Positions 40,037 through 42,570 of a stretch of 42,570 nucleotides of DNA are shown piece by piece (the first letter of the stretch is position 1; every line of letters begins with the position of its first letter). The position numbers and the translations under genes were made by a program. The notes beneath the pieces are model-generated. The model saw only the letters and a list, made by a program, of their open reading frames with translations, searched no databases and had not been told where the DNA came from. The DNA is from a virus (lineage: Duplodnaviria; Heunggongvirae; Uroviricota; Caudoviricetes), in IMG/VR virus record IMGVR_UViG_2687453563_000006, positions 1 through 42,570 of that record; one strand, written 5' to 3'.

Positions 40037-40210
40037 TCATGCTGCTTTGCGACGACGAAGCTTACCCTGCTGCTCTTTACCAGAGACAGTAGCGTGAGTG
40101 AACGCATTAGGAGCAGCCTTCATCAGAACTTCAACAGCAGCACCCATACCTGCGAATGCTTTCATTGTGTCGAACTTAACCTGTGGCTTGGTTGCTTTTT
40201 GATCTTTCAT
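40037..40210 (-). CDS. Small basic protein (57 aa), unknown function
   Basis: MKDQKATKPQVKFDTMKAFAGMGAAVEVLMKAAPNAFTHATVSGKEQQGKLRRRKAA; gggag SD; not in the ORF track. Confidence 0.5.
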   Translation of the reverse strand: MKDQKATKPQVKFDTMKAFAGMGAAVEVLMKAAPNAFTHATVSGKEQQGKLRRRKAA

Positions 40211-40280
40211 AGAAAACTCCCGAGACAGTAAAGGCGTCTCTAACCCTTTCTTTAAAGCTAGCTTGTTTCGCTAACTTATG

Positions 40281-40301
40281 CCAATCGATCATGTCGATTG
40301 G
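40281..40301. promoter_or_regulatory. Operator-like palindrome CCAATCGA-N5-TCGATTGG
   Basis: Perfect 8 bp inverted arms about 70 bp upstream of the small basic protein gene. Confidence 0.4.
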
Positions 40302-40406
40302 TGACATCGTTTCTTAGTAGTTTAAGCACAAAACGACTGCCATAGATGTACCTTTAAGGTAATCTGGACGGGTATCCTACAATTTGTAGACCCTTCTCGT
40401 CTATAC

Positions 40407-40943
40407 CTACTGAGCAAATTTAAGAAAGATATCCTGCAGCTCATCAATGACTGCCGACATCACATAACCGCACTGTTCCATGCGGAAACCAAAAGACTCG
40501 TAATACTGCACCAGTTCTGGTACTGGCTCTACAATGTGGACAACTTTACATTCAACAGCTTTACAAAATATAAAAGCACTCATAAGAGTGAGTAAAACCA
40601 TGCGCCCTTTCAATGGGTGAGATTCATCTTCTCTAGAAAACCTTTCGATCATATGGATACGAAAGATGTTTTCTTCAACCCCATAAACACAAATTGCTGC
40701 TCCTGATGGTATTCCCTGAACCCGACCTTGCTGAACAAGTTTTATGCAGAACTCATACTTTTCTCTGGAGTTGCCATAGGTACTTAACGCATAGTCCCAT
40801 TCAAGCTCACCATAGCCACCACACAGAATCTTGTAATCATCATCACTGAGCGGACCAACAGCAAGAGGTAAGCCGACATGATCAATAATCAACTGGATAT
40901 TGTTACGTACTGATTGACCTATCTCGTCCAGGGTAAGCATCAT
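40407..40943 (-). CDS. GNAT-fold acetyltransferase-like protein
   Basis: 178 aa; KGRMVLLTLMSAFIFCKAVECKVVHIVEPVPELVQYYESFGF resembles GNAT motifs A/B; own promoter region and SD. Confidence 0.5.
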   Translation of the reverse strand: MMLTLDEIGQSVRNNIQLIIDHVGLPLAVGPLSDDDYKILCGGYGELEWDYALSTYGNSREKYEFCIKLVQQGRVQGIPSGAAICVYGVEENIFRIHMIERFSREDESHPLKGRMVLLTLMSAFIFCKAVECKVVHIVEPVPELVQYYESFGFRMEQCGYVMSAVIDELQDIFLKFAQ

Positions 40944-41477
40944 GGCCTCTCAAGCGGAACACTAAAAGTCGCATTATATCTCATTCTTAAGCCGCGTATG
41001 GATTACACCTTGAAATGAAAACGCCGGGTTCCCAATAGGCTCCCACAAAGTATATAACTATTTGTTTTTCAAAAACGGTACATCCTATCGAGCATTGGTG
41101 CAACGCTAAACCGACCACTCCAGTGAACGTCAGTTTTTTCAGGCATTGCGCTGGTTTGGTTGATTTTTTGCATTTCAGAATTACCGTGCATTTTCAAATG
41201 TAGAGATTATTTTATCGATATATCATGGGGTTATGTTATTCAGCATCACTATTCAGGAGACTCAATAGCGGGGTACTATACCATAACAACAGGAAGCGCC
41301 TGTCTCATTGCAAAAGAAAATTGAGATCCTCTCAAGGCATGAAGCTCTCACGAAGTGATGGAAATAATCTTATTAGCCGTTAACTTTGTTAAGGCCAATG
41401 ATAAACAATCCAGGTTCGACGATAAATAAAAAATCACACATTAAACTCTGGTGATATATCTCCCTGCTAATAGCATT

Positions 41478-41512
41478 GATAGAGAAAAAAGAACCCAATA
41501 AATATTGGGTCC
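41478..41512 (-). terminator. Intrinsic terminator after the repeat-containing gene
   Basis: acccaat-aaat-attgggt hairpin followed by UCUUUUUUCUC on the minus strand. Confidence 0.65.
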
Positions 41513-41553
41513 TTTTATATAATGCCTTCCATACTATCGAAGAACTTCACATA

Positions 41554-42570
41554 TTATTTCTCCGATTTAACCCCGAACAAATCATAAATTAATTTAGAAG
41601 TGTCTGTAAGTATTTTAATCTCTTCCTTTGAGGTTGGGTCAAACGACTTCGCGAAGCTAATTAATTGTGGTGCAGCATCTCGCATTTTGCTTAAAATATC
41701 AGGATCGAGCGTTCCTTCATTCACCAGATGTGACATCTTATCCAGATAGCCATCAAAATTCATTTCTCCCCCATCAGCCAGACGCTTCATCTCTCCCAGG
41801 TACTTCTTCATATCACGTTGAGATAATTTTTCAAACTGAGCTTTCAGGTAGCTCTCATTATTTTCATTAATATACACTGTTTCTGATAAATCTGTGTAGG
41901 CACTAGAATATGAAAGTGAAATTAACAGCGAAGCAAATAATTTTAAGCTGTTGTCATCATGTTCCTGGCAGGCATTAACAAACGTTAAAAAACCAGAACC
42001 TATTGCTTGAAAATGTATATTCGCTAAAGGTTCATTATCCTTAGATTCCTCATAAAATAGCTGAACCGTGGAGGGAAGGCCATTCTTAGTTTCTACATCA
42101 AAAGTACATCGTTCAATGGGAGTCGCATCTTTATTATCCCCAGGATTACATATACTATTAATCGCGAAATGAAAAATAGCCCGGTCAACAACTGATGCAA
42201 TAAAGTCACGATCGTTTAAATCCTCATCAGTGCAATCGTCAATATACTTATTGACCCACACTTTGAGATTAGTTATTTGCTCAATTAAAAACACATTTTT
42301 TTTACGTGCATGCCATAAATTATGAGTGATTCTTTGAATAAACAAATCTATTTTTGCAATAATTATATCCCGATGACGCAGCGCTGAATAATCAATAGAC
42401 TTACCATATATATTATTTAATTTACCTTTGATTGTACCTCTATTATCTAATTTATCTTTGGTTGCATCTATATTATCTAATTTATCTTTGTTTGCATCTT
42501 TATTATCGAATTGATTTGAATTGAGTGTTTTATTAAAGTATCCAGTTGCACCGGGTATTATCTTCAACAT
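41554..42570 (-). CDS. AT-rich protein of unknown function with N-terminal 10-aa tandem repeats (possibly 5'-incomplete at window edge)
   Basis: 338 aa ORF reaching the window end; no recognisable motif. Confidence 0.5.
42441..42500. repeat. 30 bp tandem repeat (about 2.3 copies) in 5' coding region
   Basis: tattatctaatttatctttggttgcatcta / tattatctaatttatctttgtttgcatctt, encoding [14 protein letters not shown] repeats. Confidence 0.7.

Follow-up and report, generated by a model that had tools for sequence, protein, structure and literature searches.

The viral record IMGVR_UViG_2687453563_000006 (Caudoviricetes), analysed here over its whole length of 42,570 nucleotides and called the window below, ends in an AT-rich stretch (positions 40037-42570) that raises the question of where the phage stops and what its last genes are for. 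Three open reading frames (ORFs), for proteins of 57, 178 and 338 amino acids (aa), lie there on the minus strand, beyond a bidirectional terminator that closes the early-left operon with a perfect hairpin and A/T runs on both sides. An earlier note made from the sequence had recorded these ORFs and the terminator, and both are there as described (Table 1); it had also read the three genes as one block of moron cargo, placed where an integrase would normally follow, and as a plausible undescribed defence, anti-defence or lysogenic conversion module. Our analysis divides this block in two. The 338-aa gene belongs to the host chromosome, while what remains, the 178-aa gene for a GNAT-like protein and the 57-aa gene (the small gene), is an uncharacterised, widely distributed two-gene moron, which we tentatively read as a toxin-antitoxin (TA)-like or defence module.

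We looked at the limits of the prophage first in its host. Positions 39600-42570 match the chromosome of Escherichia coli YD786 (NZ_CP013112.1) at 100% identity, and RefSeq lists there, in order, a 3'-5' exonuclease, a PrtN-family protein, two hypothetical proteins, a partial tRNA-dihydrouridine synthase and a DUF2713 protein, with zur, yjbJ, dinF and lexA beyond. The junction was mapped by aligning four sequences, namely the window (attR), the empty site of E. coli K-12 (attB), the other junction of the YD786 prophage (attL) and attP of phage mEp460. Results showed that attR equals attP leftward and attB rightward, attL being the mirror image, and that parentage switches inside a single octamer; homology to K-12 starts at 41088, and mEp460 homology takes up everything to the left of it. 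The partial tRNA-dihydrouridine synthase is the displaced 5' end of host dusA (98% identical to that of K-12), whereas an intact 1038-nt dusA is found to the left of window base 1, with a tyrosine integrase gene (int, as annotated in RefSeq and mEp460) 88 bp away in divergent orientation. The first 107 nt of this intact copy are of phage type, 82% identical to the remnant and matching the attP of mEp460. By these alignments, an mEp460-like lambdoid prophage has almost certainly integrated into the 5' end of host dusA and has its attR within 40037-42570, a judgement that covers the anatomy as a whole.

Both halves of the dusA arrangement, the insertion that leaves a displaced fragment at one junction and the new 5' end supplied beside a tyrosine integrase so that full-length dusA is restored, agree with the elements with dusA-specific integrases, which are described as replacing the dusA 5' end (Farrugia et al. 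2015, PMC4482086). The integration itself is nothing new. In mEp460 (NC_019716), which shares the early region and both small genes at 98.6% nucleotide identity, the order is xis (annotated as excisionase), gp24 (57 aa), gp23 (177 aa), a 339-bp gap and the integrase gene, and comparison of the att sites gives the free-phage order as xis, cargo slot, attP with its dusA 5' mimic, and int. As attP lies between the cargo slot and int, integration sends int to the far end of the prophage, next to the rebuilt dusA, and brings the cargo slot up against the displaced dusA 5' end, behind which the host gene lies. On this mapping the window is shifted relative to the prophage, omitting int, whose stop codon abuts window base 1, and including 1.5 kb of chromosome. 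The apparently missing integrase is thus an artefact of the window cut, and the cargo does not stand in its place. We also observed that integration creates a short ORF of DusA residues 1-35 plus five phage codons with the native dusA upstream region still in front of it; this could yield a truncated DusA peptide as well as transcription that reads through into the prophage.

The third gene falls on the far side of the junction. Its product matches Pfam PF10897 (DUF2713) over residues 104-338 with E 1.3e-163 (542 bits against a cut-off of 27), which already removes it from the proteins that had been thought to lack a nameable family. The gene is 98% identical in DNA to the K-12 locus and has the same neighbours, zur-yjbLM-dusA in YD786 and zur-yjbL-yjbM-dusA in K-12, so that domain and chromosomal synteny together identify it as DUF2713/YjbM. 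Of 5426 complete E. coli genomes, 4383 have a match to the junction region in which it lies, and phage mEp460 has no counterpart. If all three genes had formed one prophage moron block replacing the integrase, an undescribed defence, anti-defence or conversion module, then their shared strand and low GC, as well as the PHROG families that exist for the 338-aa protein, would be accounted for. Yet attR runs between the second and third genes (41088-41095), the 338-aa gene stands at the same site in prophage-free K-12 and in most E. coli genomes, it is absent from mEp460, the integrase is found at the other end of the prophage, and the PHROG matches are best explained by prophage callers that overshoot the junction. 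The empty-site comparison with K-12 refutes the three-gene block, which we regard as scarcely credible.

What remains on the phage side is a slot of swappable cargo between xis and attP, limited to about 39960-41018. Relative to other dusA-integrating phages, its left breakpoint lies either within the 3' end of xis (about 39958) or a short way upstream of the 57-aa gene (40220), and homology returns on the right at 41018-41027. The contents of the slot differ from phage to phage: phages SKA5 and Lys8385Vzw hold the 57-aa gene together with a Panacea-domain antitoxin gene and a 139-aa partner, PhiR40_1 holds a YafO toxin and a 179-aa partner, 1720a-02 holds a 182-aa predicted membrane protein, and one Salmonella prophage has an extra HTH-2TM gene. 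In these four phage records all the slot cargo is oriented as the dusA remnant is. In SKA5 and Lys8385Vzw the Panacea-domain (SocA-like) gene overlaps the 139-aa gene of unknown family directly beside the 57-aa gene (positions 3151-4139 of the extract), and the two are probably a PanAT toxin-antitoxin pair. The slot therefore varies at a fixed position, with at least four different contents, which holds for the 178-aa and 57-aa genes and fails for the 338-aa gene: the comparison with relatives leaves the first two as variable moron cargo, not core in all relatives, and makes the third host core. The xis-attP slot of dusA phages is a defined hotspot where further systems can be sought.

The pair is common, also in pathogenic E. 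coli such as O157:H7 and O111. This xis type occurs in 741 of the 5426 complete E. coli genomes, and 357 of the 741, many of them O157:H7 and O111, carry the full series of xis, 57-aa gene, GNAT-like gene and phage arm, the rest having xis with the small gene only or xis only. The cassette is thus present in about 7% of complete E. coli genomes; Salmonella dusA prophages hold the same pair, and many Salmonella carry it. The AT-rich character that had drawn attention to the region is real on both sides of the junction, with GC of 0.433 in the cassette and 0.350 in 41096-42570, compared with 0.471 in the early region and 0.555 in the structural genes.

We then considered whether the two genes belong together. 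In 31 of 31 loci (17 distinct small-protein variants) the GNAT-like gene is followed, on the same strand, by a homologue of the small gene, and the linkage holds in pairs as distant as 40% identity in the GNAT-like protein and 28% in the small one. The commonest insertion site is the interval from Q to the holin gene (Franconibacter, Citrobacter, Serratia, Edwardsiella and phage Eeyore). In Brenneria the pair comes straight after a cI-like repressor gene; a P2-like Edwardsiella prophage has it in the interval from gpA to the portal gene, Photorhabdus inside a myovirus tail operon in sense orientation, and Shewanella at a prophage end. The P2 GpA-portal interval is a documented defence hotspot (PMC13586616). 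From these sequence contexts, the pair occupies at least five unrelated accessory-gene sites in phages. Nucleotide homology between the E. coli and Franconibacter copies begins at the terminator (39992) and extends 7 nt past the GNAT-like start codon on its upstream side, so that the terminator travels with the cassette. In Eeyore (PP925821.1) the homologue is an unannotated 53-aa ORF downstream of a 42%-identical GNAT-like gene (extract 4798-4959), at a place where the record has several short overlapping annotated ORFs, which are probably spurious.

Relatives were also found on plasmids. A 96-kb Enterobacter plasmid has a 27%-identical GNAT-like relative followed by a 57-aa ORF without evident likeness to the small protein. 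On a 3-kb Morganella plasmid a GNAT-like relative stands beside a 54-aa ORF with a similar GRRRVEEA tail, the small ORF being upstream, and this plasmid probably holds the pair in the opposite order. The latter, of Morganella morganii (NZ_CP139443.1, 3015 bp), contains little beyond a replication-type helix-turn-helix protein, a 60-aa ORF, the GNAT-like gene and the 54-aa ORF; its GNAT-like gene is 35% identical, crosses the record origin and is unannotated.

The GNAT-like gene was never found without the small gene. The reverse does occur: SKA5-type phages have only the small gene of the two, and in Photorhabdus temperata the GNAT-like gene next to it carries two frameshifts. Two unrelated neutral passengers that happen to be neighbours would be compatible with the long and variable spacer between the genes and with the possibility of separate transcription signals. 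This is very improbable in face of adjacency in the same order in every one of the 31 loci, across unrelated sites and host genera, and of an E. coli-Franconibacter nucleotide homology that covers the unit from terminator to GNAT-like start codon. The two genes very probably form one functional unit, and the slot holds an autonomous mobile two-gene cassette composed of a -10-like element, the GNAT-fold protein, a structured spacer, the 57-aa protein and a terminator.

The 178-aa protein matches nothing in Pfam or NCBIfam even at E <=1, nor any PADLOC model, and its sole family is PHROG 4350, of unknown function. Its AF2 (AlphaFold2) model, built on a 24-sequence alignment, has a pLDDT of 91 and a pTM of 0.87 and is predicted to adopt a GNAT fold, in agreement with what had been proposed; a BFVD fold search returned generic GNAT matches only, and the structural neighbours of the model include peptide and protein N-acetyltransferases. 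The family comprises 93 representative clusters among 1.84 billion proteins, and a Pfam scan of its distant members gave nothing save one sub-threshold match to Acetyltransf_1. Invariant across this wider family are W49 and Y148 only. Y148 lies inside a YYxxFGF motif that aligns with motif B of RimI, and its position would be compatible with the usual catalytic tyrosine, although HHalign against E. coli RimI aligned the motif B region alone, with 4% probability. Neither a curated GNAT model nor a canonical acetyl-CoA motif A was matched, and a profile search of PDB sequences yielded spurious weak matches only (gp41 constructs and designed armadillo proteins).

The 57-aa protein likewise has no Pfam, NCBIfam or PADLOC match. 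Its homologues form 48 clusters in Enterobacterales, with identities of 28-98%. It is lysine-rich, and its AF2 model, of low confidence (pLDDT 60.7), has one helix at residues 15-32 and predicted disorder elsewhere. In each of its 17 distinct variants a basic run precedes the last residues, which are -AA in 13 cases and -AVA in 4. The -AA tail resembles the ClpX recognition tails of ssrA (LAA) and MuA (RRKKAI), a likeness that we treat as a lead, not a result. The expectation that these proteins belong to no nameable family was thus borne out for the 178-aa and 57-aa products. Given the variable slot and the lack of any curated family or known defence model, the pair is a plausible undescribed accessory module; that description does not extend to the 338-aa gene.

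Signals in and around the cassette were also examined. A perfect TATAAT hexamer stands in front of the GNAT-like gene, no good -35 element being found with it; a TATAAT- or TACAAT-like hexamer occurs within about 50 nt upstream of the GNAT-like start in about 10 of 16 contexts by eye (3 by the scripted criterion). The spacer between the two genes contains conserved hairpins, and the palindrome that had been noticed upstream of the small gene is an inverted repeat kept in Salmonella, Franconibacter, Pseudescherichia and Enterobacter. Its changes include one compensatory A-T to G-C replacement in Salmonella and several G.U-compatible ones in other taxa, but also mismatches, and its CCAAT/ATTGG ends are conserved in sequence, so that an RNA hairpin and a DNA operator are both possible. 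An Rfam scan of 39900-41600 gave only terminator-like noise below gathering thresholds. A 43-aa ORF at 40176-40307 was rejected as a gene; it shares positions with the spacer and with the beginning of the small gene, and as a protein it is neither annotated nor conserved. The idea that each unit has its own terminator or promoter region was right for the terminators at 39993-40018 and 41487-41516, while no canonical terminator was seen between the 178-aa and 57-aa genes in this window.

The host dusA promoter region displaced by integration faces the cassette in dusA prophages, and the promoter by which the dusA 5' mimic must be driven has the same direction in the free phage. Given these directions, and as no terminator was predicted from the dusA remnant to the GNAT-like gene, the cassette could plausibly be expressed independently of the lytic circuit.

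What would such a cassette do? We favour, as a possibility that stays short of probable, a lysogen-expressed TA-like, abortive infection or defence module. The GNAT-fold protein would be an acyl- or acetyltransferase effector, harmful or growth-arresting, and a small labile protein would neutralise it, the pair acting like a toxin and its antitoxin. The lysogen would express both from the cassette's own promoter, to which read-through from the displaced dusA promoter could add in dusA prophages, and the pair could act in abortive infection, exclusion or addiction. Such a role is suggested by the sites, which are typical of exclusion, defence and TA cargo, and by the TA modules that sister phages carry in the same slot; by the asymmetry in which the GNAT-like gene is never alone whereas the small gene can be; and by a partner that is small, disordered and provided with a conserved terminal tail. 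Taken as a whole, the explanation that combines the anatomy, the cassette and this proposed mechanism has about an even chance of being right.

Several observations weigh against a TA or defence role. The acetyl-CoA motif Q/RxxGxG/A is degenerate (HPLKGRM) and unconserved in distant members, its glycine alone being partly kept, so that catalysis by the GNAT-like protein is, as judged from its sequence, unproven. The architecture differs from that of known GNAT toxin systems, with the partner downstream, a spacer of 77-250 nt and no ribbon-helix-helix (RHH) or DUF1778 protein. None of the three proteins of the region matches the PADLOC-DB v2 defence models at E <=1. A ClpXP degron in the small protein's tail would be no more than a candidate, proposed from its resemblance to the ssrA and MuA tags. 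Brenneria has an intrinsic terminator between the GNAT-like and small genes, and the small gene probably has transcription signals of its own as well. The orphan of Photorhabdus temperata is a single case from a draft assembly, where sequencing errors are possible, and the PanAT pair of SKA5 stands beside the same 57-aa gene, which complicates a simple reading of one toxin and one antitoxin. Finally, the Q-holin and tail-operon sites are transcribed late and would also suit a gene that helps lytic growth.

This last point leads to an alternative in which the cassette serves lytic growth by counter-defence or host takeover, the GNAT-like enzyme acetylating a host factor, a defence protein, or a virion or phage component, with the small protein serving it as cofactor, as specificity subunit or as regulator. 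Late expression is implied both by the commonest site, which is flanked by the late antiterminator Q and the lysis genes and often has a DNA methyltransferase gene as neighbour, and by the sense orientation inside the Photorhabdus tail operon, and phage accessory regions are rich in anti-defence genes (bioRxiv 10.1101/2023.04.06.535777). We nonetheless consider it unlikely. The cassette of dusA phages converges on the early-left operon and lies at the end of the prophage, downstream of a host promoter; the Brenneria site after a cI-like repressor and the P2-like GpA-portal hotspot are typical of genes expressed in the lysogen; the cassette has its own -10-like element and terminator, as prophage-expressed morons do; sister phages carry TA modules in the same slot; and the asymmetry in the presence of the two genes would not be predicted.

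A further alternative starts from the small protein itself, which could be a substrate or product partner of the GNAT-like enzyme, such as an acylated peptide effector, or a regulator of the cassette at the transcriptional or RNA level, instead of an antitoxin; the phenotype would then be a different kind of lysogenic conversion. The strict linkage of the two genes, the lysine-rich and disordered character of the small protein, the conserved inverted repeat and hairpins upstream of its gene, and the peptide and protein N-acetyltransferases among the structural neighbours would all suit it. An obligate substrate, however, is not expected to occur without its enzyme, and the small gene lacks the GNAT-like gene in about a quarter or more of the E. 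coli phages of this xis type. No recognisable DNA-binding fold was seen in the small protein, and export or maturation genes were not found with the cassette, which makes this alternative quite improbable.

Returning to the TA or defence role, its most specific version is more doubtful than the role itself. It would be an undescribed mobile family, TA-like or acting in abortive infection, in which a divergent GNAT enzyme is held in check by a disordered, protease-labile sensor mini-protein with an ssrA/MuA-like basic -AA tail. The module would hop among the accessory hotspots of lambdoid, P2-like and myovirus prophages and of plasmids, and in dusA prophages it would come under the captured host dusA promoter and be expressed only after integration. 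Whichever function is correct, a compact and strictly linked two-gene cassette lies outside every curated family and defence catalogue checked, in the accessory hotspots of several phage types. At about 1 kb it is a cheap and testable candidate. A literature search gave nothing relevant on these proteins, their PHROGs, GNAT-based defence systems or E. coli yjbL/yjbM.

Table 1. Features at the right end of the window and across the prophage-host junction (window coordinates).
Feature	Position	Strand	Remarks
PrtN-family excisionase-like gene (xis)	39681-39989	+	Last gene of the early-left operon; left border of the slot; PF11112 E 4e-23, PHROG 1300 'excisionase' E 8e-40
Bidirectional intrinsic terminator	39993-40018	.	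11-bp perfect hairpin arms, T-run on each strand
57-aa basic protein	40037-40210	-	PHROG 2741 (function unknown) E 8e-36; C-terminus ...RRRKAA
Intergenic spacer with conserved hairpins	40211-40406	-	RNA fold -60.3 kcal/mol, z = -2.76
Inverted repeat 8+8, CCAATCGA-N5-TCGATTGG	40281-40301	-	About 70-90 nt upstream of the small gene
178-aa protein, predicted divergent GNAT fold	40407-40943	-	Likely true start at the second ATG, 40940
-10-like hexamer TATAAT, perfect	40973-40978	-	30 nt upstream of the GNAT-like start codon; candidate cassette promoter
Phage arm (P arm) of the attachment site	41018-41087	.	Right border of the slot; homology to SKA5, Lys8385Vzw, PhiR40_1 and 1720a-02 resumes at 41018-41027 and continues to the core
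Displaced host dusA 5' end	41069-41191 (short ORF 41069-41197)	-	Codons 1-35 at 41088-41191, read into phage DNA, stop at 41069
attR crossover core	41088-41095	.	Octamer TCGAGCAT; parentage switches inside it in the four-way alignment; true right prophage end
yjbLM terminator	41487-41516	-	Hairpin with 13-pair stem, then T-run
yjbLM, intact fused form of K-12 yjbL+yjbM, 338 aa	41554-42570	-	PF10897 (DUF2713); host chromosome, outside the prophage
30-bp tandem repeat, 3.6 copies	42405-42512	-	TRF score 146, 83% matches; encodes the 10-aa N-terminal YjbLM repeats

The host gene deserves a word of its own. Compared with the window, K-12 has one 30-nt repeat unit fewer and a 1-nt deletion in a run of eight A, by which the gene is split (K-12 extract 1322-2307), and on this alignment K-12 yjbL and yjbM are the halves of one gene. 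The N-terminal repeats had been noticed before and correspond to the tandem repeat of Table 1, whose copy number differs among strains. Named DUF2713 homologues come nearly all from E. coli, with lengths of 318, 328, 330, 338 and 340 aa, set apart by one repeat unit, and a truncated form of 235 aa; this length series suggests slippage-prone repeats and a homopolymer tract in an AT-rich (34% GC), almost E. coli-only gene. The 338-aa protein also matches phrog_29005 (E 3e-168) and phrog_28007 (E 2e-26), and prophage calls overshooting the dusA attR have probably seeded phage protein-family databases with yjbM and yjbL through these entries. Prophage windows at dusA that overshoot attR and miss int in this way lead to host yjbLM being treated as phage cargo.

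Some observations concern other parts of these prophages. A second AT-rich cargo block (31-36% GC) occupies 112-3821, at the integrase-proximal end of the prophage and in the position of dinI in mEp460; it comprises a frameshifted IS1, a family-A glycosyltransferase (281 aa) and a 652-aa HAD-family protein, and it may be a module for lipopolysaccharide or O-antigen modification (seroconversion). At 38419-39099 the window has one continuous ORF of 226 aa, equivalent to a single DUF551 protein in mEp460, where RefSeq has two partial DUF551 pseudogenes and a separate DUF551 gene, a mismatch that looks like an annotation inconsistency rather than genuine gene decay. A Serratia prophage with the cassette carries, just after its lysis genes, a 93-aa gene with a Pfam match to the Acb2/Tad1 hairpin (extract 6988-7269), the sponge fold of anti-CBASS and anti-Thoeris proteins.

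Compared with known systems, the prophage as a whole behaves as the dusA-integrase elements (PMC4482086) and mEp460 do, being inserted in the dusA 5' end with a replacement 5' end beside a divergent int, while the opposite junction keeps the original 5' fragment, and with attL and attR as imperfect repeats; it differs from mEp460 in carrying IS1, glycosyltransferase and HAD-family genes where that phage has dinI. The 338-aa ORF corresponds in gene and locus to K-12 yjbL/yjbM, intact here and split there. The cassette takes the same positions as classical morons, such as lambda rexAB after cI, P2 old and tin in the GpA-GpQ hotspot, and genes between Q and the lysis genes such as stx, and resembles them in its own -10-like element (a candidate promoter) and terminator, its lower GC and its variability among collinear phages, whereas the gene content is unrelated. 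The PanAT and YafO-type TA modules of SKA5, Lys8385Vzw and PhiR40_1 occupy the identical xis-attP slot in the same orientation but are unrelated to the cassette in sequence and fold. The GNAT TA systems TacAT, AtaRT, KacAT and ItaRT likewise join a GNAT-fold protein of roughly 175 aa on mobile DNA to a small partner, and the presence/absence asymmetry found here fits a TA pair. In those systems the antitoxin is upstream, has an RHH domain (DUF1778) and belongs to an overlapping operon, while here the partner lies 196 nt downstream and is predicted to consist of a single helix and disorder, without a Pfam match, which sets the pair apart from the GNAT/RHH type II class; the GNAT proteins share 8-13% identity with ours, no better than generic GNAT proteins do, and the acetyl-CoA motif is degenerate here. 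The 178-aa/57-aa moron is a reasonable candidate for a new variant of GNAT-based TA or defence modules, and if it does act as such, it would bring a new partner type for GNAT effectors.

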